Below, piece by piece: positions 20,960-40,689 of a stretch of 64,000 nt of DNA; position 1 is the first letter of the stretch, and each line of letters opens with the position of its first letter. The stretch lies in the IMG/VR virus record IMGVR_UViG_2974610597_000001; one strand, 5' to 3'. Below the pieces are notes generated by a model. That model saw only the letters and a list, made by a program, of their open reading frames with translations, did no database searches and was not told the DNA's origin. Source of the DNA: Escherichia virus ESCO5 (Duplodnaviria; Heunggongvirae; Uroviricota; Caudoviricetes). The translations under genes were made by a program, and so were the position numbers.

Positions 20960-20988
20960 TATTTTTAATAAAAGGGCCGAAGCCCTTA
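20960..20988 (-). terminator. Rho-independent terminator after primase-helicase gene
   Basis: Minus-strand hairpin AAGGGC-TTCG-GCCCTT followed by TTTTATTAAAAA. Confidence 0.5.
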
Positions 20989-22764
20989 ATAATTGCTATC
21001 CGTAGGCAAATTAGCAGGATTGTTGAAATACTGCTCTTTGTCATGCAGAGTTGCAGTTCTAATGTCATAGTAAAACTGCCCTGCCGGACCAGTTTCCGAG
21101 AACTCACGGTTTTTTAGGATAAAGCAATGAGTCGTATTGCGTTCTACAGGGTCTTCAGCGGCTTTATCTCGTTCCAAAGCCAAGGTAATACCAGCACCTT
21201 TAGCCAAGAAACTACTACCCATTGCATCGTCCTCTGTTAAGTGTTCATTGCCACCATTAGCCGATTTCTTAACGTGTGAGATGACGATAATAGTTATAGC
21301 ATACTCTTTCATGATGCGCTTCAACCATGTTGCTAACTCTTCCTGGGCTTGAACATCCATACCAGAAAGCAAATCAGAATAAGGGTCGATAACAAGAATT
21401 GTTACTCCAAAATAGATGATCATCTCCAAAACTTTTTCTTTGATAGACTCCACATCTGCTCCACGATCATCACACACATAAAAACGTGGTGATCCATCTT
21501 CTCTTTCGTAAAAATCCAGGATTTTTTCTTTATTCTCTTCCAAGATTTGAAATTTCTCTTCCGGTGTTTTCCTGTGTAGAGGAATATGCAGGAACGAGGA
21601 CAACAGGTTACGAGAATATTTCTTATAAGTTGCTTCCAAGGACAGAATACCTAGGGTATGTTCTGGGTGCGCAACAATAATATGTTTGGTGATCTCGTTC
21701 ACCATCAAAGTTTTACCGATACTGGTCTTTGCCAGGATGACTGTAATCTCTTCCTCTACTAAACCACCACCCAGCATATTTGCAGCAACACGCATAAAAG
21801 GAGGCAAGGTAATCATCTTGGATTCCAAGCATTCTAATGCAGCTTCATACAAGACATTAGAAGCATAAACACCTGCTGGGGTGTATAGACGAGCACTCCA
21901 AAAAGCTTTTACGAAATCTTTTGCACGACCTTCTTCCAGATACTGATTGGCATCCTTAAGATCCATCTGCATACGATAGACTTTGTTACGAGGCAGCACC
22001 TTAACAATATTTTCAAATGCCTCATTACCTGCTTTGTCGTTATCCATGCAAACAATAATCTTCTTAAATTTTTCAAAGAAAGGATATTGTGCCTGAACTT
22101 GTTTATACATACTGGTTTCACCAGTTGTGCCACTTACTACGGCTGGAAGCTCATATTTACTGTCCAAGTTTTCAGATAGCATTTGATAAGCTGCCAGAGC
22201 ATCGTGTTCACCACCTGTAATTACAACAGTATGAGAACGGTCTGCAAAACGAATTTGTCCAAAAAGATCTACATCTTTACCTACTTGACCAATAGGTTTA
22301 CTGAAATCTTTAGGATGAATACGACGCTTAAAACCAACCAATTCTTTACCGATGGTAGTCGGATATAAACAACTTTCTACTACCATCTGATCTCCTTCCT
22401 GACGGTATTCATAACGAACACCATAGAAAGATGAAACTTTTTCTTTAATGCCTCGATAACCACGTGGGTTGGTTGATGTTTCTTGAACAATTTTACGATG
22501 AATCTGTTTATTAAATTCCGAACCCACAATCTCCTCCTCTTCTTCTAAAACTTCACCATTTTCTCGTAACCATTCTACGCTAGGAATAGTGTATTCACAC
22601 GCAAAGCACTTAGCACCTTTATGCTCTCCATTAGAATCTAATCCGTAAACCATCAGGTTATTACGAGAGCGATCCTTGCCATTTTTCATGCAGCGCGGAC
22701 AACCTGTATGTCCTTCCTTGCTAAGATCAACATCAAATCCATATTTAGTTATAATGTGCGACAC
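20986..22764 (-). CDS. Bifunctional DNA primase-helicase (T7 gp4-like)
   Basis: 592 aa; N-terminal zinc ribbon CPRC...CFAC, TOPRIM-like middle, C-terminal DnaB-type helicase with Walker A (AKTSIGKT) and Walker B-like (VLVIDPYSD). Confidence 0.8.
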   Translation of the reverse strand: MSHIITKYGFDVDLSKEGHTGCPRCMKNGKDRSRNNLMVYGLDSNGEHKGAKCFACEYTIPSVEWLRENGEVLEEEEEIVGSEFNKQIHRKIVQETSTNPRGYRGIKEKVSSFYGVRYEYRQEGDQMVVESCLYPTTIGKELVGFKRRIHPKDFSKPIGQVGKDVDLFGQIRFADRSHTVVITGGEHDALAAYQMLSENLDSKYELPAVVSGTTGETSMYKQVQAQYPFFEKFKKIIVCMDNDKAGNEAFENIVKVLPRNKVYRMQMDLKDANQYLEEGRAKDFVKAFWSARLYTPAGVYASNVLYEAALECLESKMITLPPFMRVAANMLGGGLVEEEITVILAKTSIGKTLMVNEITKHIIVAHPEHTLGILSLEATYKKYSRNLLSSFLHIPLHRKTPEEKFQILEENKEKILDFYEREDGSPRFYVCDDRGADVESIKEKVLEMIIYFGVTILVIDPYSDLLSGMDVQAQEELATWLKRIMKEYAITIIVISHVKKSANGGNEHLTEDDAMGSSFLAKGAGITLALERDKAAEDPVERNTTHCFILKNREFSETGPAGQFYYDIRTATLHDKEQYFNNPANLPTDSNY

Positions 22765-22776: not shown

Positions 22777-23055
22777 TTAAAATGGTTCGTTAGTCTCCAT
22801 CATATATTCTGCTTCTAGTTCTTCCATGTGCTTTCTAAATTGGAAAGCAATTTCTGCTACAGTTACATTTAAATCTTTTTCAAAAACTTCTGTAGATCCT
22901 TCATAAAAACGAATACCGTCAATTAAAAGCCCTCCGTGGTAATCCCAATCGCTTTCACGAGAAAGTGGATTAGGTTCTTCATAATAGTAATCCACCTCCA
23001 CAACCAAGGCTTTCCCGTTACGAGTGGTGTATTCAAAATCAAAAGTGTTAATCAT
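22777..23055 (-). CDS. Hypothetical protein
   Basis: 92-aa ORF; stop overlaps downstream start. Confidence 0.35.
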   Translation of the reverse strand: MINTFDFEYTTRNGKALVVEVDYYYEEPNPLSRESDWDYHGGLLIDGIRFYEGSTEVFEKDLNVTVAEIAFQFRKHMEELEAEYMMETNEPF

Positions 23056-23999
23056 TATAGCTCCTCAAATAAAAGTCTACGACGCTCATTCAACACATCA
23101 ATGTGATAATGAGTCCTGACATACTTAGCTAATGCTAATCCTTTCTCCATGCAAACATCGGGAGCACTTAATAAGTATTCCGTAATATCTTTCCACTCGG
23201 AAGGTGTTTCAGCAAAGAATAACAAATCTTTAAACTCTTGTGTATGATAATTCTCACGAGGAGAGCAGATTAAAGGTAAACCCTTAGCACCTGCCTCAAG
23301 AATTTTAAGATTGCTTTTTGCATTATTAAACACGTTATCGATCAATGGTGCAAGACTGATTTGATGACCATCGTAAGATTCCATGTAGTAGGCATATGGT
23401 CTTACACCTTCATAAACACAAGTTGGTGCTACATTTTCCCTGATTAAAGACCATTCACGACTACTTAAAACTTCAGAATCCCTACGAAAACCACATATTG
23501 TAAGATCTTTACCAAAATCGGGCAAGATAGCCAAATCTTGTTTATGTGTTTCACTTCCAGCCCAGACTAATGGAGTTTTGGAGTAGCGATCACGGGTCAA
23601 CACAAATTGACCTTCATCGTAAGGAAGTCCATTAGGGATTATGTGCACATTATCATTGTATTGTGAAAGTTCAACTTGCAAGGCAGGTGTCGTAGTTGTA
23701 ACAAGATCACTGTGCTCTAAAAACCATTTTAAATGTTCACGAATACCTGATTCAAAAATACCTTCTAACATGTGTCCTTTTGGAATAACTAAAGAGTCAT
23801 CCAAATCCATAACCATTTTAAAGCCCAGGTTTTTAAGGGCTAAAAAGCCCTCTTTACCTTTTGTTGGCACTCCGTTAAAAACGAAAACGTTGTGTTTAGG
23901 TTGTGAAGAGAACTGCCTTGAGTAAGGCAGCACTACCCTATGGAAATCGCAGACACTATAATTGATTCCGTTACGATTGTCAAGAATTATTTGTCCCAT
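23055..23999 (-). CDS. Glycosyltransferase (GT-B fold, GT1/GT4-like), paralog 1
   Basis: 314 aa; C-terminal nucleotide-sugar motif NAKSNLKILEAGAKGLPLICS; paralogous to next gene. Confidence 0.5.
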   Translation of the reverse strand: MGQIILDNRNGINYSVCDFHRVVLPYSRQFSSQPKHNVFVFNGVPTKGKEGFLALKNLGFKMVMDLDDSLVIPKGHMLEGIFESGIREHLKWFLEHSDLVTTTTPALQVELSQYNDNVHIIPNGLPYDEGQFVLTRDRYSKTPLVWAGSETHKQDLAILPDFGKDLTICGFRRDSEVLSSREWSLIRENVAPTCVYEGVRPYAYYMESYDGHQISLAPLIDNVFNNAKSNLKILEAGAKGLPLICSPRENYHTQEFKDLLFFAETPSEWKDITEYLLSAPDVCMEKGLALAKYVRTHYHIDVLNERRRLLFEEL

Positions 24000-24006
24000 A
24001 CTTCAC

Positions 24007-24954
24007 CTACAAACTTTCAATAACCTGGCGTCGCAATTCGTTTGCATCTGCCAGATTATAATGTGTTCGAACATGTTCCGCTAAGAACAAGCCGCGATCT
24101 TCCCGATAGTTCGGATTGCGAAGAAGCTTAACAATTTCGTAATGCCATTCAGCTTTATTCTCTGCGTAAGCAACAGCGCGAGCATCTACAGGGTTAAAAT
24201 AAGGTAATACCTTAGAACAAACAATCGGAATACCTTTTGCCCCAGCTTCAAGGATTTTGAGATTACTTTTACAATTATTAAAATCATTGTCTACCAAAGG
24301 AGCTATAGCAATAGCATGACTTTCGTAAACACTCATGTAATTATCTAAATCTTTTACAGCAGCTTTATATTTGGCGTTTGGTAAATTTCTACGGATCTTA
24401 ATCCACTCTTGCCCTGTGATACTCTGCGATGCTTCATATCCTGCAATAGTAAGAAGTTCATCATCGAAAGTATTAGAGACTAGTCGTAAATCGGGTTCGT
24501 GACTAGCACCGCCAGCCCATACAACAGGGGTACCGGATGAACGATCATTTGACAAAGTGAATTGTCCGCTATCAAAAGGAAGTGCATTTCGGATCACAAC
24601 AACATTCCTATTTAAGTGACGGATCTTATATGCCAAATATTCCGTAGTCACAATGACCACATCGGCAAGCTTAACCATAGCTACAATAGCATGAGTGTTT
24701 GACTCATATAAACTTGCTAAATAATGTTCTGGATTAAGTTGGTAGAAATCATCTAAATCTACAACAATCTTAACACCTTGACGTTTCAGTGACAGAACAT
24801 ATTCTGCCCCTTTAGAATGAATACGGTTAAACACGACAACATCTTTCTTAGGCTGAAAATTATTGTTGTTAAATGGTATAACAATACGATGATAATCACA
24901 ACCACTGTGAGGTTTTGCATCAATTTTCAGTTTAGTCCATTTTTTATTTGACAT
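24007..24954 (-). CDS. Glycosyltransferase (GT-B fold, GT1/GT4-like), paralog 2
   Basis: Start refined to internal ATG at 24954 (GGAGG about 9 nt upstream); motif KSNLKILEAGAKGIPIVCS; N-terminus SGCDYHRIVIP parallels SVCDFHRVVLP of paralog 1. Confidence 0.5.
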   Translation of the reverse strand: MSNKKWTKLKIDAKPHSGCDYHRIVIPFNNNNFQPKKDVVVFNRIHSKGAEYVLSLKRQGVKIVVDLDDFYQLNPEHYLASLYESNTHAIVAMVKLADVVIVTTEYLAYKIRHLNRNVVVIRNALPFDSGQFTLSNDRSSGTPVVWAGGASHEPDLRLVSNTFDDELLTIAGYEASQSITGQEWIKIRRNLPNAKYKAAVKDLDNYMSVYESHAIAIAPLVDNDFNNCKSNLKILEAGAKGIPIVCSKVLPYFNPVDARAVAYAENKAEWHYEIVKLLRNPNYREDRGLFLAEHVRTHYNLADANELRRQVIESL

Positions 24955-25627
24955 GTGCCAGTGCCTCCTCATAAGAAATTCGGATTTTCCCATTTTTAAT
25001 ATCTTCTAAAGACGCTTTATATTCTTCCCAGTTAATGCCAATAGCAACTTCTTTCTCTTCTTTTGTCAGATTAGCAAAAGGCATAGGATTGTTTCCAAAA
25101 ACATCGTCTGGGTGGATATAAGCCATGATACGAAGTGGACAAGGTATTGCCTGAATGCCCTGATTCAAACCAGCAGCTTTCAAACGGTGTACCCATTCAG
25201 CATCTTCAAAACCATAGCCGTGAGTGTAAGGGCGGAAATAACCCATCTTCTCAACAACGGCACGAGAATACATTGCAAATTGACACATTGCAAGTTCCCA
25301 GAGAATAACTTCTCCTTTACTCCCAACAACTTTATCTTTGAAATACTCCGGCATACCAAAGAAATCCCATCCTCCAGAGACAGCTTGATCTACAAAATAT
25401 GTTTCCCATCCCTCCATGATTGGGTAGCAATCGTCGTCAAAAATAAACCAATAATCATAACCTTCTTCATAAAACTGGTGCATAAGTTCATTCCTGGCGT
25501 AAGCTACACCTTTACGATCTGGATCGTTGAATACTCGAAAATCTGCATGTGGATCTGTTACAAGGTAGTCTTTAAGTGGACGGACACCTACAGTGATAAC
25601 ACCCACTCCGATTTTAATATTTTCCAT
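24944..25627 (-). CDS. Glycosyltransferase-like protein (GT-A-like, acidic DDD motif)
   Basis: 227 aa; YDYWFIFDDDCYP resembles the DxD-containing core of GT-A enzymes. Confidence 0.4.
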   Translation of the reverse strand: MENIKIGVGVITVGVRPLKDYLVTDPHADFRVFNDPDRKGVAYARNELMHQFYEEGYDYWFIFDDDCYPIMEGWETYFVDQAVSGGWDFFGMPEYFKDKVVGSKGEVILWELAMCQFAMYSRAVVEKMGYFRPYTHGYGFEDAEWVHRLKAAGLNQGIQAIPCPLRIMAYIHPDDVFGNNPMPFANLTKEEKEVAIGINWEEYKASLEDIKNGKIRISYEEALAHVK

Positions 25628-25635
25628 TTTCTCTC

Positions 25636-26199
25636 CTAAATAGTTTTACTGTGATCGTGACAGTGTAATAAATGATGTATAGACCGTTGAGGATTTGTTT
25701 GACCTAATCTGTAAATGTGAAACAGATACATTCCCCGCATCAATCCTAACCTCTTTCCTTTTTCATGTAAAGTGCGAGAGAAAATTAAGTCGAATTGGAT
25801 AGATTTTTCTTCGAAAGGAATTTCATTCCACAATGATTTTCTAAAAAGCAAAAAGAAACCTGCCAGAGGTGTTCCGAAAGGAACTTCTTCAACACTCACT
25901 TTATGATATTCTCTTGCAATCTTAGCATATTCTATATGGTTTAGAATATCTGGATCATCGTTAATTTGGTTAGAGAAAAGCTGATAACCACTACCTAACC
26001 TGTTACAAGTTGCACCTATTACATCAAAAGGCGGGTTTGACATAACAAGCTCTTCAAGCATAGATGGTTGATCAGGCAGGAGGAACATTGTATCGGTATC
26101 TCTTAAGCACACCCAACTATCATCTGGAAGAACGGCAATAGCTTCATTGATAGCCTTGCCGATATTTCCTGTCAGATAGGGAGTAATATAATAAATCAT
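25636..26199 (-). CDS. Glycosyltransferase-like protein
   Basis: 187 aa; N-terminal Rossmann-like start MIYYITPYLTGNIGKAINEAI and CLRDTDTMF acidic motif; fourth member of cluster. Confidence 0.35.
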   Translation of the reverse strand: MIYYITPYLTGNIGKAINEAIAVLPDDSWVCLRDTDTMFLLPDQPSMLEELVMSNPPFDVIGATCNRLGSGYQLFSNQINDDPDILNHIEYAKIAREYHKVSVEEVPFGTPLAGFFLLFRKSLWNEIPFEEKSIQFDLIFSRTLHEKGKRLGLMRGMYLFHIYRLGQTNPQRSIHHLLHCHDHSKTI

Positions 26200-27518: not shown

Positions 27519-28121
27519 TTATGGACATTCATACCATTCTTTTTTACCACCGAAGGCCATTACCACATCGCAAATATCCAGACCAGCTTTACCTACACCA
27601 TATGCTTTCAGCTTCCATTCTCCATCTTCACGAACCAGGGAAGCCACGTGGCAGATTGTGTTGCCAGCTACTTCAGGAGCCAGGAAGTCAAAATCCAGAA
27701 TTTCCACATTACGCTCGGAGTCGAAGATTTTAAGCATACCTTCAGAAGCATGACCAAAACGTTTCAGACCTGTATCATCATCAATAGTCAGAACAAAGGC
27801 AATCTCTTGTGCATCAGGAGAGATTTTAGCCAGAGTAATATCAATCTGCTCCATGCTGCCAGTTCCATCACGAACATCGTCACCAGCAAAGGTAGAACGT
27901 TCAGGATCAAACTTATTAGCATAGCAAACCAGATGACGTGCAGACAGCATTTCAGGATTGCCAGCGGCATTGTGACGACAAACCAGTGCACTTACATCCA
28001 GATCCAGTTTAGAATCAGATTTCCAAGAGAACTCCAGGCGTAGTTCTTTCAGAGCCGGAGCAACTTTCTTCAGGGAAATTTTTTCGCTAGAGCCTTTTTT
28101 CAGGGAAATTTTATCAGTCAT
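27519..28121 (-). CDS. terD: TerD-family stress protein
   Basis: 200 aa; N-terminal ISLKKG...EKISLKK, DLDVSA, GDDVRDG, IAFVLTIDD, REDGEWKLKAYG match conserved TerD-domain blocks. Confidence 0.8.
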   Translation of the reverse strand: MTDKISLKKGSSEKISLKKVAPALKELRLEFSWKSDSKLDLDVSALVCRHNAAGNPEMLSARHLVCYANKFDPERSTFAGDDVRDGTGSMEQIDITLAKISPDAQEIAFVLTIDDDTGLKRFGHASEGMLKIFDSERNVEILDFDFLAPEVAGNTICHVASLVREDGEWKLKAYGVGKAGLDICDVVMAFGGKKEWYECP

Positions 28122-28136
28122 CTTTTGTCTCCTCTA

Positions 28137-28406
28137 TTATTTAAGTGTAATACCAGTTACAGTCAATTCTACTTCCAAAAGCTTAGATGTGTTTTGGATT
28201 GATACTAATTGTGCATGATGGTTTAGTTCTACAGCAGAATAATCATTTTCCCCATCATCTACTTTTAAATAAACAATGATTTCACTAAGGTCTAAACCAT
28301 TTTCGTCAAATGCATTTTCATAGACGAAAGTATCTCCTACATCCAAATCTTTAATGGTAAGGCATCGTTTATTTACTTTTTGCTCATCAATTTCGAAGTT
28401 TAACAC
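28137..28406 (-). CDS. Hypothetical protein (paralog of 29428..29772)
   Basis: 89 aa; shares DLDVGDTF(V/M)Y..A(F/Y)(D/E)(E/D)(N/A)GLD core with the 114-aa paralog. Confidence 0.35.
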   Translation of the reverse strand: MLNFEIDEQKVNKRCLTIKDLDVGDTFVYENAFDENGLDLSEIIVYLKVDDGENDYSAVELNHHAQLVSIQNTSKLLEVELTVTGITLK

Positions 28407-28635
28407 TTCTTCCTCCTAATATTATCTCCGGTTTATATATACGAAGAATTATAGCATTTTCATTTTCTTTGTCAACCCATTCTTCATAATCAGGCCATAC
28501 ATGAATCTCTACTCTACTTACAATATCTTCCATTCGCACAGTCCCAATGAAATACTCTTTGAGACTGCACATAATGAAAGCTTCTCTCTCGCGCCAATAA
28601 TTTTCTATGACTTGAGAGGCAAGCTCGTCGATCAT
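28387..28635 (-). CDS. Hypothetical protein
   Basis: 82-aa ORF with start/stop overlaps. Confidence 0.3.
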   Translation of the reverse strand: MIDELASQVIENYWREREAFIMCSLKEYFIGTVRMEDIVSRVEIHVWPDYEEWVDKENENAIILRIYKPEIILGGRSVKLRN

Positions 28636-29426
28636 TTTTTAGCACCTACTTTAACAACCCACTCTCCGAACTCTTCAGATAAGAGTTTGTCATAAAGCTC
28701 TGAATCTGTCAAGTCTAAATCTTTAATGCCAATAAAACCAACATTATCATAAGCATTTGCCAGTTCTTTCAGGAAGCCAAACTTCTCATTACCAACGCCA
28801 ACCATGAACCAATAAATAGGTTTATTCTTATTCTCTTCAATAAGACGACGAACAGCACTAGGATCACCATTCTCACCATCCGTCTGGAAGAATACAACAC
28901 CAGGGGTAACGTCAGCACCTGGTTCAGACACAGCTACAACCTTTTCACGCTCTACAGATACTGTTTCAGTTTTACCAAGCAGACGATTAAAGAAGCCTTT
29001 CTTTGGAGCCTCTTCTTGTACCACTTGTTTAGTGGTAATATATTTGGTAACAGTGCCAAAATACTCATCGTAGATATCTGCCATTACAGGGGCGTAATTT
29101 GTTCCACCTCCGATACGAACATTACGCATACATTTACCAACATAGTCATCGTAAACGTCTGCTGTTGCTGGAGTAAGCTCTTGGGAACTCGTATTGAAGG
29201 CCCACATATCAATTTGTTGATTATCGTCGAACAGCATACCAAAAGGAAGCAGTTTACCTACAAAATCACTCACTACCCCACTAGAATATAGACCATGCAT
29301 ACTACCAGAAATATCTAGAGCACATGCTACACGAAGAACAATCTTACCTTCATTCAGGTTCTTATTCTTTTTCAGAGAGAAAGCAAGGTTTTCTTGACGT
29401 TTTTTCAGGCTGATTTTATCGGACAT
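28632..29426 (-). CDS. von Willebrand factor A domain protein with TerD-like N-terminus (TerY-like)
   Basis: 264 aa; N-terminus MSDKISLKK near-identical to terD start; MIDAS motif ALDISGSM. Confidence 0.6.
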   Translation of the reverse strand: MSDKISLKKRQENLAFSLKKNKNLNEGKIVLRVACALDISGSMHGLYSSGVVSDFVGKLLPFGMLFDDNQQIDMWAFNTSSQELTPATADVYDDYVGKCMRNVRIGGGTNYAPVMADIYDEYFGTVTKYITTKQVVQEEAPKKGFFNRLLGKTETVSVEREKVVAVSEPGADVTPGVVFFQTDGENGDPSAVRRLIEENKNKPIYWFMVGVGNEKFGFLKELANAYDNVGFIGIKDLDLTDSELYDKLLSEEFGEWVVKVGAKK

Positions 29427-29427
29427 A

Positions 29428-29772
29428 TTATTTCTCCTTCTTAAGTGTAATGTTGGTAACTTCTAAATCTACTTCCACCATATTTGTATCTGGCGGGATG
29501 CAATGAGTATAGCCTCGTTGTGCTAGTGATCCATTAATACAAATCGCACTGTTTGTGGAATTTTTAATGAACACCAAGTTACGGTAGGTATCCAACCCTG
29601 CGTCTTCATAGGCATCATAATACATGAATGTGTCCCCTACGTCAAGATCTTCGAAAGCAATAGGTAAATCCTGACCTTTTTCTTCTTGAATATTGAATCT
29701 AAACACGCATACCTCCTCTACCAATTTTGAAGCCCAAATCGTAAGCTTCCTTAGTAATCTTTTGTAACTCAC
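29428..29772 (-). CDS. Hypothetical protein (paralog of 28137..28406)
   Basis: 114 aa; FEDLDVGDTFMYYDAYEDAGLD core shared with paralog. Confidence 0.35.
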   Translation of the reverse strand: MSYKRLLRKLTIWASKLVEEVCVFRFNIQEEKGQDLPIAFEDLDVGDTFMYYDAYEDAGLDTYRNLVFIKNSTNSAICINGSLAQRGYTHCIPPDTNMVEVDLEVTNITLKKEK

Positions 29773-30262
29773 TTATAGGAAGTGTTACAAGAGGATCATC
29801 TTCTTCAATTTCCATCTTGTCATCTTCTGTTTCAATGAGAGTATTATGCACTTTGTGATAAGGGTTGTCAACACGTTTAAACTTATTCTTTTCTGTGCTG
29901 AAAAAACAATCTGGATCTTCTTCACCATCACCCCAACCTTGATTAGGATCTCCGTCAGATTGTTCTGTAGGGATTTCACCTGTAAAGTACTCTTCCAGCA
30001 CCATAGCAATACCGTCCCTTGGATTTGAGGAATGCATTAAATCACAAACCTTACCCCAATCCATAGCCCATTCGAACCGTTCACGAACGCCATTTTCATC
30101 CTCTTTTCCAGAGAAAACACAACCATAACTATCATAGTTGCCATACATCTCTTCAATAACAACACCGTCTTTCAAAAGAAAGAGGTAGCAAGGTGATCCG
30201 TCGAAAGAAGTAGAAAGGGCAGCTTTGCCCGATTCTTTGCACAAAAAACTAAAACAACCCAT
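29699..30262 (-). CDS. Hypothetical acidic protein
   Basis: 187-aa ORF, Asp/Glu-rich C-terminal half. Confidence 0.35.
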   Translation of the reverse strand: MGCFSFLCKESGKAALSTSFDGSPCYLFLLKDGVVIEEMYGNYDSYGCVFSGKEDENGVRERFEWAMDWGKVCDLMHSSNPRDGIAMVLEEYFTGEIPTEQSDGDPNQGWGDGEEDPDCFFSTEKNKFKRVDNPYHKVHNTLIETEDDKMEIEEDDPLVTLPISELQKITKEAYDLGFKIGRGGMRV

Positions 30263-30465
30263 TACAAACCCTCCTTCAGATTATCAAGAGCTACAGTGGT
30301 TTCACAAAATTCTCCATAAGCTTTATGATGTTCCAGAAAAGCTTCGGGTCCACCCCAGTCATTATCTTGTGTATTCCAACCATCAATAAAAGCATCTTCA
30401 ATGATTGTGATCAGTTCTTGTCGGGTTAACTGGATAATATTAGGATCGTTATCGTAGTTAAACAT
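30262..30465 (-). CDS. Small hypothetical protein
   Basis: 67-aa ORF. Confidence 0.3.
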   Translation of the reverse strand: MFNYDNDPNIIQLTRQELITIIEDAFIDGWNTQDNDWGGPEAFLEHHKAYGEFCETTVALDNLKEGL

Positions 30466-30631
30466 CTTCTTCCTCCTCTAAAATATGAAACCCGTAATTA
30501 CAATAGTCCTGAAAGGTTTCGTGCGCAAGATCTTCTATATCCTCTTGAGACATATCATCTTCAATTTCGATATCCACAACCTCATTGCATCCACACCAAG
30601 CAGTTTCAATATTCACTCGTAATATTTTCAT
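30458..30631 (-). CDS. Small acidic protein (missed by ORF track, 57 aa)
   Basis: ATG at 30631 overlaps upstream stop (TAATG); MKILRVNIETAWCGCNEVVDIEIEDDMSQ...; fills an otherwise empty 170-bp gap. Confidence 0.3.
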   Translation of the reverse strand: MKILRVNIETAWCGCNEVVDIEIEDDMSQEDIEDLAHETFQDYCNYGFHILEEEEDV

Positions 30632-30828
30632 TACTCCTCCTCCTCATTGAAGTCAATATCTGCAAGGAGTTCGAATTTACGGAAGTTACGACAACCTTCA
30701 TAAATATAACAATCACGACAAACTGCTAGAACACTTGGGGGATATATGCCTCCCATCGGTGCGAATCGTTTTTCGTCATCATAACGGACACCAATGTCTT
30801 CATCAATTATATAGATACGGATTCTCAT
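30631..30828 (-). CDS. Small hypothetical protein
   Basis: 65-aa ORF. Confidence 0.3.
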   Translation of the reverse strand: MRIRIYIIDEDIGVRYDDEKRFAPMGGIYPPSVLAVCRDCYIYEGCRNFRKFELLADIDFNEEEE

Positions 30829-31937
30829 TTACCAAGCCCTCGTTTCACAGCAGCTACCATCCCGTCTTCCAGAGATTGAACTTCATTAATATAATCAACA
30901 CGAGCAGCACGGGCTTCCGTATTGATGCGGTTAGTTTCTTCCAACATCTTAACCAAGTTTTCCTGATCGTGACGCAGAGTTTCAATATCCAACACTTGAC
31001 GGTTAGCCAGTGCTGCTGCTTCGATCTGATTCTGTGTGGCAAGATCGCTACCTAGTTTAATTGCCAGGTTAAATTCATCAAGAACGTTATTCTGCGTCTC
31101 TGCTGCTTTCATTTGACGTAAGCTCTCGATATACATTGAGAAGTTAGCAGAGTAAGCAGGAATAACATTATTTACTATGTTACGCGCAGATCGCATTAAG
31201 CTTGCAGAAACTTTTTGCATACCTTGTACACGCGGTCCCATTTGGACACACAGTAGGCGCAACGCCTTTAAATCTGCAATACGAATCTCCAGGAGATCCA
31301 AAGTATCTCGGATCACTTGTCGCTGTTCTACGGCATCTTCTGGAAGAGCAGCCAAAGCTTGTTCTTCTTTTTCATAGGTTGCTGTTAGAAGCTGCATATC
31401 TCGGTTCAAACTTGCAGCATATTGTCCAATAGCTTGGTGTAGCTTTTCAAGATATACCAAGGAATCTTCTTCTTTGCGAATATCCATTTGAAGGTTCTTT
31501 ACCAACTCTTCAATACGGTTATTAACATTATCAAACTCCCCAAACAGGTCTTCTTTCATACCCATAACTTTTTTAATGAGTTTAGTAATACCCTTGCTTT
31601 GTTTAATAGAGTTTGGATCAAGTTGTTTTGCCTGTTTAATCAAGGCTGTGAGTCGTTCACTCATCTGATCGCCTTGATTACTACGTTGATGTTTTAACAC
31701 CTCGGCATTCAAGGAACGCAAGGTTGTTCCTGCCTCTGCCCCAATCTCTTCGATCTCTTGTCGGGTCATAGAAGGTAAAACTGGAACTTCTTGCGGTGCT
31801 GCTGGTGCATAAACAGGACTGGCATCTAACACACTTGGAGCAAATACAGATTTACTTGCATCTGTTGTTGCAGCGAATACACTCATTTCAGACTTCTTCT
31901 GACCACCAGTAGCTGCTTTTAAAAATGGACTTGTCAT
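30825..31937 (-). CDS. TelA-like (toxic anion resistance family) coiled-coil protein, tentative
   Basis: 370 aa, long alpha-helical/coiled-coil architecture with Ala/Pro-rich N-terminus; size, composition and Ter-gene context suggest TelA/KlaA family; no diagnostic motif verified. Confidence 0.3.
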   Translation of the reverse strand: MTSPFLKAATGGQKKSEMSVFAATTDASKSVFAPSVLDASPVYAPAAPQEVPVLPSMTRQEIEEIGAEAGTTLRSLNAEVLKHQRSNQGDQMSERLTALIKQAKQLDPNSIKQSKGITKLIKKVMGMKEDLFGEFDNVNNRIEELVKNLQMDIRKEEDSLVYLEKLHQAIGQYAASLNRDMQLLTATYEKEEQALAALPEDAVEQRQVIRDTLDLLEIRIADLKALRLLCVQMGPRVQGMQKVSASLMRSARNIVNNVIPAYSANFSMYIESLRQMKAAETQNNVLDEFNLAIKLGSDLATQNQIEAAALANRQVLDIETLRHDQENLVKMLEETNRINTEARAARVDYINEVQSLEDGMVAAVKRGLGK

Positions 31938-32524
31938 TCTTCATTCTCCTCTTCTGCATCTCTTATATATGGTGAAACACCGTACTCTTTAGCTACTTTA
32001 ACCCAATCATCCCATTTATACAACCATAATTTTCCTTCAGTTCCTTCTTTATCTGATTTCAACCACATGTTAGGTTGCTTGCCTGGGTACATGCGATTAG
32101 GTTTACGATTATAACCTCTAACACATCTTGTCGCAAACCTATCTACCAGAACAAGAACATATTTATATTCGTGGTTCAACGGCTCTTTGGAAGTGGCTTT
32201 AGGATTAGCTCCTAATTCTGCTGCCAGTTTTTGCCAATGAGCACCGTGTCTACTAAACTTACCCATACAACCATCAATAGCATGAGCAATTTCGTGCTTC
32301 ATTGTATCCACGATCATATCTCTTGTAGAGTTCTTATGCAAGTGCCAATTTACAACAACAATTTTATCTCGGTAGTTGCACCAACCGAAAGAGTTATTAA
32401 CTTTGTTTCTAACACAAGCTTTATATCCTGCTTCACGTAACATGTTGTAGTAAACAGGAAAATCTTCTTTTATTTCCTGCATCACTTCCCACCACAAGAG
32501 TTGCAAGTCTCTCTCGGTATGCAT
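31934..32524 (-). CDS. SprT-like zinc metallopeptidase domain protein
   Basis: 196 aa; HExxH motif in MKHEIAHAIDGCMGKFSRHGAHW, preceded by conserved Trp-rich N-terminus. Confidence 0.5.
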   Translation of the reverse strand: MHTERDLQLLWWEVMQEIKEDFPVYYNMLREAGYKACVRNKVNNSFGWCNYRDKIVVVNWHLHKNSTRDMIVDTMKHEIAHAIDGCMGKFSRHGAHWQKLAAELGANPKATSKEPLNHEYKYVLVLVDRFATRCVRGYNRKPNRMYPGKQPNMWLKSDKEGTEGKLWLYKWDDWVKVAKEYGVSPYIRDAEEENEE

Positions 32525-32527
32525 AAC

Positions 32528-33121
32528 TTACACCTTAAAAGCGAAATGCGTGGTCGTGGCTTCAAAATCAGGGCCAGATAAACTTGCACTGAAATCTGAA
32601 ATATTTGTAATTAAAAAGCTTTTATGCATACCTAACACAGCCACGCTTTCAATATCTTCTACTAACATTTCAATCATGTTAGAAACATGGCTGAACGTAG
32701 AGTTTTGTTTTTTGATGGTGTAGAAAGAAAGATTCCCACCTGCTATATAAGACACCTCTTCAAAATCTTTAATCGTATATTGTGTGCCATCAGTAAAGAA
32801 AATGGTAGCTTTATTAGTAGCACGTTTCTTGTTTTTTGGTCCTTTTTTACGTTTACTGCGAGTAGGCAAACCGTTTGGAAATACCGTAGCTACAAATTCT
32901 TCAGGAGAAACCTCCTTACCGAAATCATAACCGTAAGAAACAGCGTCTATAAACTCGTCGTCTTCATTTTTAAAATAATGAAAATAGGGCCAATTTGAGA
33001 GATTATCGAGCATCTTATGCTCATCCACAGCAGAGAACGTATCCCTCAAAGCACGTGTGATTTGCAAAGCATTAGGCAAACTTTTAACACCTGTAATGGA
33101 AGTACGAATAGAAATTGTCAT
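32528..33121 (-). CDS. Hypothetical protein
   Basis: 197-aa ORF with KR-rich central patch. Confidence 0.35.
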   Translation of the reverse strand: MTISIRTSITGVKSLPNALQITRALRDTFSAVDEHKMLDNLSNWPYFHYFKNEDDEFIDAVSYGYDFGKEVSPEEFVATVFPNGLPTRSKRKKGPKNKKRATNKATIFFTDGTQYTIKDFEEVSYIAGGNLSFYTIKKQNSTFSHVSNMIEMLVEDIESVAVLGMHKSFLITNISDFSASLSGPDFEATTTHFAFKV

Positions 33122-33135
33122 TGTTTTTCTCCTTA

Positions 33136-33573
33136 TTAACGTCGCTTGCTACGAGATGAACTCTTTTTACTTAAAGGACTATTGTAAGATTTACGAGTTG
33201 TATAGCTACTATTTGTTTTAAAAGTTTGTCTCGGCTTTTCATAAGTTTTTATCTCTTGTTTAGGCTTACTATAAAAATTAGTTTTCGGTTTAGGTGTATT
33301 ATAATGCTTATTAATAATCGTTCTGTTATCGTTATAATCCCCACTGCTACGATTACTACCGCCACTCATCATATGCCCTAACAACATACCTGTAGCAAAC
33401 TCACCAACACCGCTACTACTAGAACCGCCACCATTGTTGATAATAGTTGTATCTCCGTCAGATCCTTGTTGAGCGTATTGTTGAGGAGGTTGTTGGTATT
33501 GTGCAGGATTTGTTTCATCCTCGCAAGCTGTTAAAAAGATACAACCAATTAAAATCAGGGCTAGTTTTTTCAT
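33136..33573 (-). CDS. Lipoprotein, Gln/Gly/Ser-rich
   Basis: Start refined to ATG at 33573 giving MKKLALILIGCIFLTAC (signal peptide plus lipobox LTAC). Confidence 0.45.
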   Translation of the reverse strand: MKKLALILIGCIFLTACEDETNPAQYQQPPQQYAQQGSDGDTTIINNGGGSSSSGVGEFATGMLLGHMMSGGSNRSSGDYNDNRTIINKHYNTPKPKTNFYSKPKQEIKTYEKPRQTFKTNSSYTTRKSYNSPLSKKSSSRSKRR

Positions 33574-33760
33574 ATTTGCTTTCCTCGTTTTGGCTATTAA
33601 TACATCTGTGTTTGAAATCTCCAGAGAAGCAATAAAGTTGCTCTCCATCTCGGTATAAACTCACTTTACTGCCGTTGATTACGCTTGTCAATACAAAAAT
33701 TACAACAAACAACCCTATTGCAAAACAAATATTTTCAAACACAACCAACAAGTATTTCAT
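33515..33760 (-). CDS. Small membrane protein
   Basis: 81 aa with one hydrophobic helix (VVFENICFAIGLFVVIFVL). Confidence 0.3.
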   Translation of the reverse strand: MKYLLVVFENICFAIGLFVVIFVLTSVINGSKVSLYRDGEQLYCFSGDFKHRCINSQNEESKYEKTSPDFNWLYLFNSLRG

Positions 33761-34107
33761 TTTAAAAATACCTCATCATCAGTTTCATTATCCCAGAAGA
33801 ACAAGTCCCAACCATTCGGATCATTCCATTTAGCTGCTGGAGAAGTCCATATTTGCTCGATATCAATATTCAAAACTTCACCGTTTCGTTTTGAAACAGC
33901 TTTAGTTAATTCCCAACGGGATACAGGCTCCACTTCCCCTGAACCACTCCCACAACAAGCTACCACATTAGGAGGCAAATTAATTGGATCTTTGGTCACA
34001 ATCATAACGCTTACCCCAGGGTAAACTTTTGAAAGATAATCTAAAACGTAATCCACATCACCAGATAAATCCCAAACAAGTTCTTGAATTTCATCAAAAT
34101 TATTCAT
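33757..34107 (-). CDS. Hypothetical protein
   Basis: 116-aa ORF. Confidence 0.35.
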   Translation of the reverse strand: MNNFDEIQELVWDLSGDVDYVLDYLSKVYPGVSVMIVTKDPINLPPNVVACCGSGSGEVEPVSRWELTKAVSKRNGEVLNIDIEQIWTSPAAKWNDPNGWDLFFWDNETDDEVFLK

Positions 34108-34149
34108 AAGTCTCTCCTATAAAATAGCCTCCCGAAGGAGGCTCATCTA

Positions 34150-35223
34150 TTAAACAGCAGCTTCTTCTTTTTCAGGGAAGATAAAGCTTGCAATAACACC
34201 AAGAGATAATGTGCCTAGAACAATCATCAGACTTACGTTAGGGGAAATATCATGCGGGAGGAATGACCACTTGGCATGAAGTGTTTCACCGAACGGGTGA
34301 TACATAAGTTTAGCACCAACAAACACCAGAACCACAGCAACAGCTTTCTCTAAGTGAACCAGATATTTCACAGCTACACTTAACACAAAGAAAAGTGCAC
34401 GTAAACCAAGAACAGCCATCAGCATTGCAGAATAAACTAGCAGAGGTTCTTGTGTCACACCGATTACAGCCGGAACTGAATCAAAAGAGAAGACAATATC
34501 TGTAAGCTCAATAACAAACACACAAAGAAGAGCAGGAGTTGCATATTTAATACCATTCTTAATGGTAATGAACTTTTCACCATCTAGTGCATTGTGCACA
34601 GGCAGAACTTTACCTACTAAACGAACAGCCCAATGCTTAGAGTAATCAATATCCTCTTCTTCGTCACCACCTTTGATGATAGCCACGGCAGACCAAGCTA
34701 CAATCAAACCGAACAACACTTGGACCGACCAATGAAGGTTAAACAAAGCGGTCCCTGCTGCAACAAAAATACCTCGGAAGACAATGGCTCCTGCAATCCC
34801 CCAAAGTAAAATCTTATGTTGAAGATGTGTGCTCTTAATTCCAAAGCTTGCAAAAATTGCCATGAATACCATCAGGTTATCTACAGAAAGACTCTTTTCC
34901 AACACATAGCCACTTAGGAAAAGCGCGGCAAACTCTTTACCATGTTCTACCCAAATGAATGCGTAATATCCTAAAGCTAAAGCAATCCAAAAAACAGACC
35001 AAAGCAAAGCAGATTTAATTCCAATTTCTTTATTTTTACCATGTTCTACCCAAATGAATGCGTAATATCCTAAAGCTAAAGCAATCCAAAAAACAGACCA
35101 AAGCAAAGCAGATTTAATTCCAATTTCTTTATTCTCTTTATGACCAAAGAAATCGATACCAATAGACAATGCCAAAATACCAACTAAAACAACTACATCA
35201 ATAATTGGGAAACCGAGTTGCAT
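34150..35223 (-). CDS. terC: TerC-family integral membrane protein, containing an in-frame 33-aa tandem duplication
   Basis: 357 aa, multiple TM helices; signature LEKSLSVDNLMVF; segment KNKEIGIKSALLWSVFWIALALGYYAFIWVEHG occurs twice consecutively. Confidence 0.75.
   Translation of the reverse strand: MQLGFPIIDVVVLVGILALSIGIDFFGHKENKEIGIKSALLWSVFWIALALGYYAFIWVEHGKNKEIGIKSALLWSVFWIALALGYYAFIWVEHGKEFAALFLSGYVLEKSLSVDNLMVFMAIFASFGIKSTHLQHKILLWGIAGAIVFRGIFVAAGTALFNLHWSVQVLFGLIVAWSAVAIIKGGDEEEDIDYSKHWAVRLVGKVLPVHNALDGEKFITIKNGIKYATPALLCVFVIELTDIVFSFDSVPAVIGVTQEPLLVYSAMLMAVLGLRALFFVLSVAVKYLVHLEKAVAVVLVFVGAKLMYHPFGETLHAKWSFLPHDISPNVSLMIVLGTLSLGVIASFIFPEKEEAAV
34939..35136. repeat. Near-perfect 99-bp tandem direct duplication inside terC coding sequence
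   Basis: 34939..35037 and 35038..35136 identical over about 95 bp (accatgttctacccaaatgaatgcgtaatatcctaaagctaaagcaatcc...), diverging only in last few bases. Confidence 0.9.
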
Positions 35224-35240
35224 TCTTTTCTCCTCTCTTT

Positions 35241-35301
35241 GCGGGGAACTATTCCCCGCTTCATTTGATATATATCTTACTCTTTTTAAGAACTATGTCA
35301 A
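35241..35301 (-). promoter_or_regulatory. Promoter plus 5'-UTR hairpin cassette driving terC
   Basis: Minus-strand reading: TTGACA - 16 nt - TAAGAT, then hairpin GCGGGGAA-TAG-TTCCCCGC, then SD AGAGGAG and ATG; same architecture and near-identical hairpin as cassette at 57455..57510. Confidence 0.5.
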
Positions 35302-35304
35302 CAC

Positions 35305-35526
35305 TTATTTTGTTGAATGAGAGGAAAAGATTCCTCGTAATACCGCCAGAATAAACGAAACACAAACCACGGTCCAGAAGGTTACTGGGACAGTGATATC
35401 TGCATGACCCATAACTTCAGCAACATAGTTGTAAGCCAGCAACAGTAACCAAGCTGGAATCAAACTAAGCATAAAAGCAATAACAAAAAAGCTTACCACC
35501 GCAATAATACCTGCAAAAACACCCAT
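35305..35526 (-). CDS. Small membrane protein
   Basis: 73 aa, two hydrophobic helices. Confidence 0.3.
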   Translation of the reverse strand: MGVFAGIIAVVSFFVIAFMLSLIPAWLLLLAYNYVAEVMGHADITVPVTFWTVVCVSFILAVLRGIFSSHSTK

Positions 35527-35538
35527 ACTAATCTCCTC

Positions 35539-36012
35539 TTAAAGTTTATAAATAGTCACATCGTGACCTGTTTTTACTAAAGTTTCTTCAATCATCACTT
35601 GGATGATAGCCCAATTACCTCCAGCATATCCAGCGCCAATCATAGGTAAGCCGATCTTACATTTTTGGTCACGGAGAAGCACATCATTAGCCATAGCTAT
35701 TAGTGCATCGTAAAGTGCATCATAGTCCAACTGACGACCTTTAGCATTGTATCCGTAACGGTATTGCCCGTATAGATTATATACCAAAGGGTCTGATTGT
35801 TCGTCTGGCACCCCTAAACTAAAAGAACCTAACTTACTTTGATCACCAGCCATTGTGTCTAAATCTGCCGCATATGCATAAGGGAATGCTCGTTTAATTT
35901 GCGGAGCAATTCCTGCCCCCATATTACACATACAATTGCAACAATGAGCAATAACAGTTACTTCACCTGCTTTAGCGGCATCAATAAGATTACCTGTTTT
36001 CATTTTAAGCAT
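35539..36012 (-). CDS. Macro-domain protein (ADP-ribose binding/hydrolase family)
   Basis: Start refined to ATG at 36012 (TAAGGAG 6 nt upstream); VIAHCCNCMCNMGAGIAPQI and KIGLPMIGAGYAGGNW correspond to the two Gly-rich ADP-ribose-binding loops of macro domains. Confidence 0.55.
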   Translation of the reverse strand: MLKMKTGNLIDAAKAGEVTVIAHCCNCMCNMGAGIAPQIKRAFPYAYAADLDTMAGDQSKLGSFSLGVPDEQSDPLVYNLYGQYRYGYNAKGRQLDYDALYDALIAMANDVLLRDQKCKIGLPMIGAGYAGGNWAIIQVMIEETLVKTGHDVTIYKL

Positions 36013-36025
36013 TTTTAGCTCCTTA

Positions 36026-36853
36026 TTACAGAATGTGTTGTTTTGTGTAACGATCCAAGAATTCAAAGTTTTCAGCATACTTTGAAATTCGGTTGTAACC
36101 TTCTCCCAAACATCCGAAGAAAAGTTGCTCTACATAGTAGTGTGGCAATTGGCTAAGAATGATTTTGAAGTCTTCGTGATTTTGGCCCATAAGATACTTA
36201 ATAGGACGAACAAGACACTGTGCATCACGTTCTTCATTAATCATTTTAACAAACGCTTCTGGTGTATTGATATAGTTAAAATTCAGTTTAGCTTCAGTAT
36301 CTGCTTGATTACCTTCATATTTTGCAAAATACAAGAAGTAAACATCATTTTTAACTTGATTTTCATCAAGAATCTCAATCAGTTTGTCTTCATGAGTTCC
36401 GGTGATATTTACATCATCAATGAACACAAGCTTCTTATCACCCCAGAATTCTTTGTTGCAGTAGAATGTATCCCCATCAATAAGTTTCTTACGACTAGCT
36501 TTATCCAAGAAACCATAATCGTTGATATAGCTAACTTTACGATGAATAATATCCAGTTCTGCTGAACGACCTTGATCATATTGTGCTTGCAACATATTAA
36601 AGTAATTAATAAAATGATCTGTCATCATTGTTGCAGCATTGTGCACATGGTTATAAGGAGAAGGGATGATAACAAATTGTTCCCCAATATGTTTCATTGC
36701 CACTTGAGCAAAAAACTGAAGTACCAATTCTTTACCCATACGACGCGCAGCTTGGTTACTACCAAATTTCAATTTTGAATAGTCTTTGATATCAAAAGTA
36801 GCAGTTTCCAGGTCATCAAATTTATTTGCAAAAATTTGAGTTTGATTACGCAT
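36026..36853 (-). CDS. Phosphoribosyltransferase-like protein (type I PRT fold)
   Basis: 275 aa; PRPP-binding-type motif KKLVFIDDVNITGTHED (hydrophobic run, two acidic residues, then T-G-T). Confidence 0.45.
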   Translation of the reverse strand: MRNQTQIFANKFDDLETATFDIKDYSKLKFGSNQAARRMGKELVLQFFAQVAMKHIGEQFVIIPSPYNHVHNAATMMTDHFINYFNMLQAQYDQGRSAELDIIHRKVSYINDYGFLDKASRKKLIDGDTFYCNKEFWGDKKLVFIDDVNITGTHEDKLIEILDENQVKNDVYFLYFAKYEGNQADTEAKLNFNYINTPEAFVKMINEERDAQCLVRPIKYLMGQNHEDFKIILSQLPHYYVEQLFFGCLGEGYNRISKYAENFEFLDRYTKQHIL

Positions 36854-37502
36854 TTACAATTTCTCCTCTTTTAAGTTTCTCTAGTAAGTCGTTAGGGTTC
36901 TTAATATGACAGAAGTTAATCCCTATGTCAACACATTTACCATCAAATTCTTCGCTGTCCCCAACATGTAAAATCTCTTCAGCCTTCAAAGGAATGCTTG
37001 AATATGTGGCGGTCCTAACAAAGAATCTAGGATCTGGTTTACATAACAGATGTTCGTCTGAAAAATGCATAAATTCAAAACAATTCCAACTGTCGAACAT
37101 ACAAGCACGACGCAAAATATCCCCAGATATAAAATTAGTATTGCTTTTAATACTAAGATCATATTTACCAGACAAGTATAGCAAACAAACTGGCAAATCT
37201 AAAGCGATATGTGGAGGAAATTTAAGAAACCATTGCTCACAATCAAAACGCATTTGTGCAGATTCTACAGGGGTTAAACCTATCTTTCTTCCCAACATAT
37301 TCCATGCATATGCTACACCTTCTGCACACCCATTTAGTGCAGCATTATCCATAATTTCTTTGGCATCTTTATATGCTTCTTTTGCCGCACGTTCAGACAT
37401 TCTACCATATGTAGCAATAGTGTGCGTACGTGCATCTGCATAGTTTTGATTGGCAGAAATAAGAGTATTCCATACATCAAAAGAAATATGTTTTATTGTC
37501 AT
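36846..37502 (-). CDS. HAD-superfamily hydrolase-like protein
   Basis: N-terminal ISFDVWNTL (degenerate motif I), CKPDP (motif III Lys), HVGDSEEFD (motif IV); start codon uncertain (ATG at 37502 or 37520). Confidence 0.4.
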   Translation of the reverse strand: MTIKHISFDVWNTLISANQNYADARTHTIATYGRMSERAAKEAYKDAKEIMDNAALNGCAEGVAYAWNMLGRKIGLTPVESAQMRFDCEQWFLKFPPHIALDLPVCLLYLSGKYDLSIKSNTNFISGDILRRACMFDSWNCFEFMHFSDEHLLCKPDPRFFVRTATYSSIPLKAEEILHVGDSEEFDGKCVDIGINFCHIKNPNDLLEKLKRGEIVNA

Positions 37503-40611: not shown

Positions 40612-40689
40612 TATTAATCCTTATTTTGTGAGTAGAACTATTATTCTACCTCTTTCAACCGAAAAAAGCTTTGAGGGAAATCAAAAAAG

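Follow-up and report, generated by a model that had tools for sequence, protein, structure and literature searches.

A glycosyltransferase block beside the replication genes of ESCO5

We analysed a stretch of 64,000 nucleotides of phage DNA (the window), which is 100% identical to Escherichia phage ESCO5 (NC_047776.2; Phapecoctavirus, Stephanstirmvirinae). Positions are those of the window unless given as record positions; the ESCO5 record coordinate equals the window coordinate plus 84346. The subject of this study is a run of four adjoining minus-strand open reading frames (ORFs) at 23055-26199, which encode putative glycosyltransferases (GTs). A sequence-only reading of the window had assigned exactly this span to two GT-B paralogs and two GT-A-like enzymes beside the replication genes, and paralogy, PHROG matches, motifs and gene neighbours all bear this out.

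The first gene of the block, gp211 (labelled GTs; 25636-26199, minus strand), encodes a minimal GT-A-fold glycosyltransferase of 187 amino acids (aa) with an invariant D34-x-D36-T37. It is followed on the same strand by gp212 (labelled GTA; 24944-25627), a 227-aa GT-A-type enzyme in which R45, DDD 64-66 and YG(F/Y)ED 138-142 are invariant. The remaining two genes encode GT4-like GT-B enzymes: gp213 (GTB2; 24007-24954, minus strand; 315 aa), the ancestral-type copy, and gp214 (GTB1; 23055-23999, minus strand; 314 aa), its lineage-specific paralog. As called, the GTB2 ORF covers 24007-24993. A GGAGG sits 7 nt upstream of 24954, and together with the RefSeq annotation it makes 24954, not 24993, most likely the true start. 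RefSeq names gp211-gp214 'glycosyltransferase', and the original GenBank record lists them as hypothetical. The spacers within the block are at most 8 nt where the genes do not overlap, so the four genes form one operon-like block, which runs on into gp215 and then the primase/helicase gene. Neighbouring genes encode the primase/helicase (20986-22764), an N6-adenine methyltransferase and DNA polymerase I.

Enzyme families, motifs and folds

All four proteins match PHROG 'glycosyltransferase' families with E values of 1e-78 to 1e-149 (gp212, phrog_2456, E=1.2e-78; GTB2, phrog_7162, E=6.8e-149). In Pfam all matches of the four proteins are sub-threshold, and an NCBIfam search of the four gave no match.

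GTB1 and GTB2 are true paralogs (41% identity over 303 aa, E=4e-76) and share the KSNLKILEAGAKG(L/I)P motif noted before. Both have two Rossmann-like domains with an inter-domain cleft, as in GT-B enzymes. Against the curated cut-off of 25 bits, GTB1 scores 24.7 and GTB2 20.6 bits with PF13524 (Glyco_trans_1_2); the GTB2 scores with Glyco_trans_1_4 and Glyco_trans_1_2 are both just under threshold, and many close GT-B homologs have a precomputed PF13524 match. K228 and K232 are invariant in the GT-B enzymes, and E235, within LEAGAKGLP, is the sole conserved Glu of the EX7E motif. The canonical EX7E motif is absent from these enzymes, the residue eight positions further on being Leu or Ile. By comparison with known GT4 structures, we infer that K228-x3-K232 and E235 may correspond to the diphosphate/sugar-binding region. 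The top structural neighbours of GTB1 include WlaC, PglA, PimA, WbnH, WaaG and WaaB. No specific structural or sequence similarity of these GTs to the T4 alpha- and beta-glucosyltransferases (GT72/GT63) was found beyond the common GT-B fold. At least 572 members of the GT-B family, recognized by the motif KSNLK[IV]LE, are present in IMG/VR.

In some assemblies one hybrid GT-B replaces the pair (for example at locus L112:4001-4948). It consists of the N-terminal two-thirds of GTB2 and the C-terminus of GTB1, joined at KSNLKILEAGAKG. A search for repeats that could have driven an assembly collapse found in the ESCO5 gene pair only one direct repeat of at least 14 nt, a 14-nt pair within GTB2 that lies off the motif. 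The hybrid is either a genuine recombinant of the paralogs or a chimeric assembly.

Of the two smaller proteins, gp211 has a single Rossmann-like alpha/beta/alpha domain, as in GT-A enzymes, and gp212 probably has the same. Their acidic motifs, pointed out earlier as DDD and DTD, are FIFDDD (D64-66) in gp212 and LRDTDT (D34/D36) in gp211, and these DxD-type motifs are invariant across the homologs (15 of gp212, 20-24 of gp211). No sequence homology between gp211 and gp212 was detectable by pairwise comparison or hhalign, and sequence-profile searches with both families against PDB sequences returned noise only. For gp212, the R45...DDD...YGFED pattern and weak Pfam matches mark it as a probable GT-A: it scores 13.2 bits with Glycos_transf_2 (cut-off 23.3) and 19.2 bits with TAGT (PF20691; cut-off 27.5), the family of TET-associated DNA glycosyltransferases. 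Across its family the matches, all sub-threshold, are to TAGT in 13 of 15 members (best E=3.4e-4), GT2 in 8 of 15 and Glyco_transf_7C in 8 of 15. gp212 also weakly matches phrog_842 (beta-glucosyl-HMC-alpha-glucosyltransferase; E=5e-6 over 40 residues). gp211 has no match to Glycos_transf_2. Its GT-A structural neighbours include RmlT, TarP, TarS and AvpGT. The gp211 family comprises 979 representative clusters at E<=1e-3 and 141 at E<=1e-30, has neither a Pfam nor an NCBIfam model, and occurs either as stand-alone proteins of ~180 aa or as the C-terminal half of ~400-aa proteins.

None of the four proteins has a predicted membrane segment. Their isoelectric points (pI) are 5.7, 8.5 (GTB2), 4.9 and 6.0; such pI and hydropathy values are weakly informative on the acceptor.

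Conservation and rhamnose supply

At the DNA level the cluster matched 71 phage-collection records from Phapecoctavirus and close relatives, each carrying at least 80% of it. In Justusliebigvirus (phi92-like) phages such as PaulScherrer (Bas60), the four genes recur in unchanged order next to the primase gene. Between ESCO5 and PaulScherrer the GT proteins are 66-77% identical and synonymous sites are saturated; where dN/dS could be computed it is 0.076-0.096, matching the primase (0.084). All four GT genes are under strong purifying selection, and the constraint on the cluster far exceeds chance. Over this region, some records labelled as Campylobacter, Acinetobacter, Pseudomonas or Klebsiella phages match E. 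coli Phapecoctavirus or Justusliebigvirus at 97-99.9% identity. Probably their host labels are wrong or the records stem from contaminating coliphages.

The clue that says most about the sugar donor lies outside the window that the sequence-only reading was given. ESCO5 encodes RmlD, RmlC, RmlA and RmlB (record 30493-33771), a dTDP-L-rhamnose pathway of its own; RmlB, RmlC and RmlD exceed the Pfam thresholds and RmlA is assigned by annotation. The GT cluster is strictly co-inherited with this pathway: in ~130 Stephanstirmvirinae records, RmlC and gp211 show matching identity bands and host labels. In the natural isolate ESCO37 (OM386659, record 32824-34226), rmlA and rmlB are cleanly deleted, rmlC and rmlD are kept, and the whole four-GT cluster is retained at 97.4% identity. 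In Enterobacteria, RffH and RffG produce dTDP-4-keto-6-deoxyglucose for the enterobacterial common antigen (ECA). Since the host already yields this intermediate, the indispensable share of the phage pathway would be the rhamnose-specific RmlC and RmlD. The retention of rmlC, rmlD and the GT genes without rmlA and rmlB indicates that dTDP-L-rhamnose is what the phage needs, and it presumably serves as donor for the four GTs.

A related module in unrelated phages

Related genes occur together in very different phages. A prophage of Serratia sp. M24T3 carries gp211-, gp212- and GTB2-like genes in the same order (41%, 34% and 51% identity), between the lysis cassette and the HNH and small-terminase (TerS) genes. 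In lambdoid prophages of Pseudomonas, gp212- and GTB2-like genes occur as a pair. The lysis genes are followed there by a Ser/Thr-rich Ig-domain protein, GT-A, GT-B, a phage metallopeptidase, a TerS-like DUF2280 protein, the large terminase (TerL) and portal; no methyltransferase, TET or ThyA lies within 10 kb, and the 10 kb upstream contain regulatory, replication and Nin genes only. The GT-B of the Serratia and Pseudomonas prophages is 44-51% identical to GTB2 versus 36-39% to GTB1. A P22-like contig has a GT-B and a GT-A gene between TerL and portal. In Cellulophaga phi17:1, a TOD1/MUCI70-type GT domain is fused to a gp211-type domain, and the fusion gene sits between portal/head-morphogenesis and protease/capsid genes, adjoining a Methyltransf_24 enzyme; hhalign of gp212 with the N-terminal half of the fusion gave no significant relation. 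About 50 environmental viral contigs of Bacteroidota type carry a GT2, a hexapeptide acetyltransferase and a GT-B ~3 kb upstream of TerL. Other large-phage contigs have a gp211-type GT, a short-chain dehydrogenase/reductase (SDR) epimerase/dehydratase and a GT-B, or a gp211-type GT, a GT2 and a GT-B, or a lone GT-B beside the primase gene; in one of them (L038) an NDP-sugar epimerase/dehydratase lies within the GT module. A 148-aa ORF upstream of the GT-B at locus L006 was considered as a deoxynucleoside monophosphate (dNMP) kinase and rejected, its 'nucleotide kinase' PHROG match being too partial (~65 residues).

These arrangements show that the GT-A/GT-A/GT-B module moves between phages of very different kinds, and that its core is a GT-A(s)/GT-A/GT-B cassette for building glycans, with swappable sugar-tailoring genes. 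In the temperate and small phages the module occupies a late or structural neighbourhood. No base hydroxylase was found near the module in the Serratia, Pseudomonas, Cellulophaga and Bacteroidota-type phages, a TET-like partner not having been looked for in those Bacteroidota-type contigs that have a C5-cytosine methylase. GTB1 appears to have arisen later by duplication, in Stephanstirmvirinae and close relatives only; it looks like an added step because single-copy modules elsewhere carry the GTB2-type enzyme alone.

Among PHROGs, the Pseudomonas Ig-domain protein hits phrog_215 ('structural protein with Ig domain') and families of major tail proteins. In the Pseudomonas sp. App30 prophage (L011:8852-9271; also L012 and L040), a Ser/Thr/Ala-rich Big_2/Ig-like protein of ~140 aa is encoded immediately upstream of the GT-A/GT-B pair. 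This Ser/Thr-rich Ig-like protein is a candidate glycosylation substrate. A 105-aa Serratia protein at the same position (L005:5118-5435) has weak N-terminal similarity to it (E~0.015). A search upstream of the module for a conserved candidate acceptor gave this pair as a lead only, and ESCO5 has no counterpart of the Pseudomonas and Serratia proteins.

DNA chemistry of cluster-bearing phages

All known routes of DNA glycosylation depend on a ThyA homolog or on TET/5mYOX enzymes to supply a hydroxylated base (PMC13326640; bioRxiv 10.1101/2023.12.21.572611), and Olsen et al. (PMC7552041) speculated that rhamnose decorates hydroxymethylated nucleotides. The sequence-only reading had listed hydroxymethylated bases among the possible substrates, had seen no base hydroxymethylase in the window, and had suggested that the rest of the genome be searched for one and for nucleotide kinases. 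Its negative observation holds for the window and extends to the genome, in which only ThyX was found. No ThyA-type hydroxymethylase, 5hoC synthase or TET/JBP enzyme is present in the whole-genome RefSeq annotation or in a Pfam scan of ~30 larger, mostly unannotated proteins, small unannotated ORFs having been scanned only in part. An extra dNMP kinase was likewise not found in the ESCO5 genome. At record 39755-41371 of ESCO5, the 'putative thymidylate synthase' is a 332-aa flavin-dependent ThyX with the RHR...S..R motif, not ThyA. The protein adjoining ThyX, annotated as hypothetical, is an NT5C-type 5'-deoxynucleotidase. A protein named 'DNA methyltransferase' in RefSeq, gp256 (record 63543-64022, between portal and scaffold), was considered as a sugar or protein methyltransferase similar to the enzyme that adjoins the Cellulophaga GT, and rejected: it is an XkdF-like prohead protease (Peptidase_S78_2, E=1.4e-11), and the RefSeq name is likely a misannotation. 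The remaining ESCO5 'DNA methyltransferase' proteins have no informative Pfam match, and two have no match of any kind.

Published data on restriction bear on the same question. In the study that characterised ESCO5, HincII resistance was found only in ESCO10, ESCO47 and ESCO58; ESCO5 is absent from the resistant set, so by implication its DNA is cut. Maffei et al. reported that the BASEL collection's phi92-like phages are exceptionally susceptible to restriction-modification (RM) 'despite a putative dTDP glycosylation machinery'. Bas60 carries the identical four-GT cluster, and Bas60-62 are these RM-sensitive phi92-like phages. They are also sensitive to Druantia III and ARMADA II, both of which the authors think recognise unmodified DNA. 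With no base hydroxylase found, HincII cutting implied and cluster-bearing phages sensitive to RM, glycosylation of hydroxymethylated bases is disfavoured, and bulk hypermodification of DNA by the cluster is very unlikely.

Candidate acceptors of the glycan

We tentatively favour the possibility that the four-GT cluster builds a rhamnose-containing glycan on virion proteins. The enzymes would form a soluble cytoplasmic assembly line, encoded by the GT-A genes gp211 and gp212 and, after them, the GT4-like GT-B genes gp213 and gp214. Sequential sugar addition, which the sequence-only reading had suggested from the paralogous pair, is a reasonable assumption. From phage dTDP-L-rhamnose and host UDP-sugars, the enzymes may assemble an oligosaccharide of 3-4 residues. 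The inverting GT-As would be the likeliest rhamnosyltransferases, the retaining-type GT-Bs probably add hexose or N-acetylhexosamine, and GTB1 may provide an extra extension step gained by duplication. As acceptors we envisage virion proteins of the phage, which undergo folding and assembly in the cytoplasm, so that the particle would bear a surface glycan coat. The soluble enzymes, the private rhamnose supply, the lack of a recognizable base hydroxylase and the position among late or structural genes in temperate and small phages all argue for an acceptor other than DNA. Virion proteins are the most economical choice because they are folded and assembled in the same compartment as the GTs, and they are favoured because in the two clearest precedents for a viral sugar-nucleotide pathway with GTs the product is a virion glycan.

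A number of observations weigh against this proposal. No Stephanstirmvirinae phage is reported to have a virion glycoprotein, and our analysis yields no acceptor. The structural neighbours of the enzymes fit lipid-linked acceptors equally well. Weakly but most consistently, gp212 resembles the TET-associated DNA glycosyltransferases, and it has the R..DDD..ED pattern described for DNA GT-As (bioRxiv 10.1101/2023.12.21.572611). In 10 of the environmental contigs of Bacteroidota type a C5-cytosine methylase is encoded ~3.4 kb upstream of a distant GT-B homolog (for example L105:6449-7408, Pfam E=6e-47). The late-region position of the module in temperate phages does not discriminate between acceptors, because DNA-hypermodification clusters can also adjoin terminase and structural genes (bioRxiv 10.1101/2023.12.21.572611). 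In ESCO5 itself, the cluster lies outside the structural module, among early or middle replication genes and behind a sigma-70-type promoter, as do the DNA glucosyltransferase genes of T4 in being placed among early and middle replication genes.

An alternative, which we consider unlikely, is remodelling of the host envelope: a rhamnose-containing oligosaccharide would be built on an undecaprenyl-diphosphate-linked or lipopolysaccharide (LPS)-core acceptor at the inner membrane face. The outcome could be an altered LPS or ECA receptor that limits superinfection or readsorption, or undecaprenyl phosphate trapped in a dead-end intermediate. The GTB1 neighbours listed above include enzymes acting on undecaprenyl-diphosphate or lipid acceptors, and those of gp211 are enzymes of O-antigen and teichoic-acid metabolism. 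ECA/NGR glycans and the LPS core serve these phages as receptors, and phage RmlC and RmlD would, from the established pathway, draw dTDP-4-keto-6-deoxyglucose away from its use as ECA precursor. There are well-known cases of prophage GTs altering surface glycans, such as GtrABS and TarP. However, the temperate relatives carry the module in the late operon between lysis and terminase genes and not in the position of a moron expressed during lysogeny. The module also comes without a flippase, polymerase or other membrane component, its enzymes have no membrane segments, and a strictly lytic phage has a single latent period in which to alter outer-membrane glycans.

Glycosylation of DNA is less probable still. 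Here rhamnose or another sugar would be placed on a modified base, but only sparsely, at particular sequences, or where an enzyme not recognised as such provides the acceptor. The location of the cluster among genes for primase/helicase, DNA polymerase and adenine methylase would fit such a role, as would the TAGT-like features and phrog_842 match of gp212, the mildly basic GTB2, the position of the rml genes in a nucleotide-metabolism region, and the terminase-adjacent location in relatives, which is typical of DNA-modification clusters too. Yet every TAGT match is sub-threshold and about equalled by GT2 matches, and within 10 kb of the module the small prophages have neither a methylase nor TET or ThyA. 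ThyX is the only related enzyme found, ESCO5 is not in the HincII-resistant set, and Bas60-62, with the same four genes, are exceptionally sensitive to type I, II and III RM as well as to Druantia and ARMADA. There is a slim chance that phage DNA does receive rhamnose from the cluster, sparsely or at particular sequences, and that the acceptor comes from no known hydroxymethylase, TET or 5hoC-synthase route. Such sparse modification would evade type I-III restriction assays and the HincII digest, and would be a new chemistry of DNA glycosylation, dependent on a dTDP-sugar and independent of ThyA and TET. Equally doubtful is a small molecule or a non-structural protein of host or phage as the acceptor, such as the nucleoside-like metabolite proposed for the adjacent set of Ter, phosphoribosyltransferase and HAD genes, a defence-related signal or toxin, or a host factor. 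A Ter block with TerD, vWA-TerF, TelA, TerC, phosphatase, phosphoribosyltransferase and hydrolase genes lies 1.3 kb upstream of the GT cluster in the same direction, and the structural neighbours of GTB1 also include GTs that act on small molecules (BshA, sucrose-phosphate synthase, TreT, SenB and LmbT). Against this, the Serratia, Pseudomonas, Cellulophaga and environmental phages have the GT module without Ter genes, a set of three to four distinct GTs implies that the product is an oligosaccharide and not a simple glycoside, and no candidate aglycone pathway travels with the module.

Comparison with known systems

Glycosylation of virion proteins, the reading that we favour, has two kinds of precedent. 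Capsids and tails of mycobacteriophages of the Che8/Rita type are glycosylated (Freeman et al. 2023, as cited in PMC11256854). Like ESCO5, these phages have clustered cytoplasmic GTs and no DNA-modification precursor genes; the glycan coat is a proposal in ESCO5. Unlike them, ESCO5 is a large lytic myovirus of a Gram-negative host with a dTDP-rhamnose pathway of its own; the likeness comes without an established sequence relationship. The giant viruses PBCV-1 and Mimivirus carry rhamnose-containing glycans on capsids or fibrils and have their own sugar-nucleotide pathways (reviewed in PMC9614988). They differ in having eukaryotic hosts and in using UDP-L-rhamnose, not dTDP-L-rhamnose, and the similarity is at the fold level only.

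The DNA glycosylation clusters of T-even phages and those dependent on TET/5mYOX or ThyA resemble ESCO5 in combining GT-A and GT-B enzymes, sometimes acting serially, in lying near DNA metabolism genes and in having phage nucleotide-sugar enzymes. They differ in that their hydroxylated-base enzyme was not found in ESCO5, the DNA of the ESCO5 clade is restriction-sensitive, and the GT families are other ones, below the TAGT threshold in ESCO5. The best structural matches of the ESCO5 enzymes are bacterial GT4- and GT2-like proteins (PglA, PimA, WaaG, WsaF, SpsA, RmlT and TarP), several of which use dTDP-rhamnose. These share K-x3-K...E in the GT-Bs and DxD in the GT-As. The ESCO5 enzymes are only 10-17% identical to them, lack the second Glu of EX7E and are much shorter (187-315 aa); their families, unlike those of the bacterial enzymes, are essentially phage-borne.

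The genes, their annotation and the idea of a 'dTDP glycosylation machinery' are already public, and the literature searched contains no experiments on these GT genes. New here are the combination of rmlABCD with ThyX only, the argument from RM and HincII, the mobility of the module, and the loss of rmlA and rmlB in ESCO37. Phapecoctavirus and phi92-like phages are among the broad-host-range coliphages put forward most often for therapy and belong to the BASEL reference set. Every one of them has the four-GT block along with its own rhamnose supply; the two together take up ~6.4 kb, ~4% of the genome, and are kept under strong selection. A virion glycan coat, if that is the product, would have no earlier counterpart among phages that infect Gram-negative hosts, and it would bear on antibody recognition, mucus binding and pharmacokinetics; humans carry abundant anti-rhamnose antibodies. 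If the product is instead placed on the cell envelope or on DNA, it would represent a new route of host takeover or anti-defence.

Transcription and neighbouring genes

A sigma-70 consensus promoter at 28448-28475 on the minus strand (TTGACA-16-TATAAT with an extended -10 TG; 12/12 match) heads an uninterrupted minus-strand run that includes TerD, endolysin, the GT block and primase. It is a candidate early promoter for this run. Overall, the scan for promoters and terminators gave no enrichment over shuffled sequences (32 found versus 25.2 expected).

The small conserved ORF gp215 (22777-23055, minus strand; 92 aa) belongs to phrog_4240, a family of unknown function, and its start overlaps the GTB1 stop. 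It holds the same position in PaulScherrer and in a Logan contig, with a dN/dS of 0.11. gp215 is co-inherited with the GT cluster, and as a member of the system it is an unproven candidate only.

Just upstream of the GT cluster and endolysin lies the Ter block (27519-37403, minus strand), which is conserved in phi92-like phages and unusual for a lytic coliphage. Its minus-strand genes encode TerD (27519-28121), a vWA-TerF-like protein (28632-29426), TelA (30825-31937), a SprT-like protein (31934-32482), TerC (34150-35124), a phosphatase (35440-35913), a phosphoribosyltransferase (35927-36754) and a hydrolase (36747-37403). We take this block to resemble the Ter-associated nucleoside-metabolite clusters of Anantharaman, Iyer and Aravind. 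Elsewhere in this strictly lytic phage, a 'hypothetical protein' of ESCO5 (record 10017-10688) has the N-terminal domain of a serine recombinase (Resolvase, Pfam E=5e-18).

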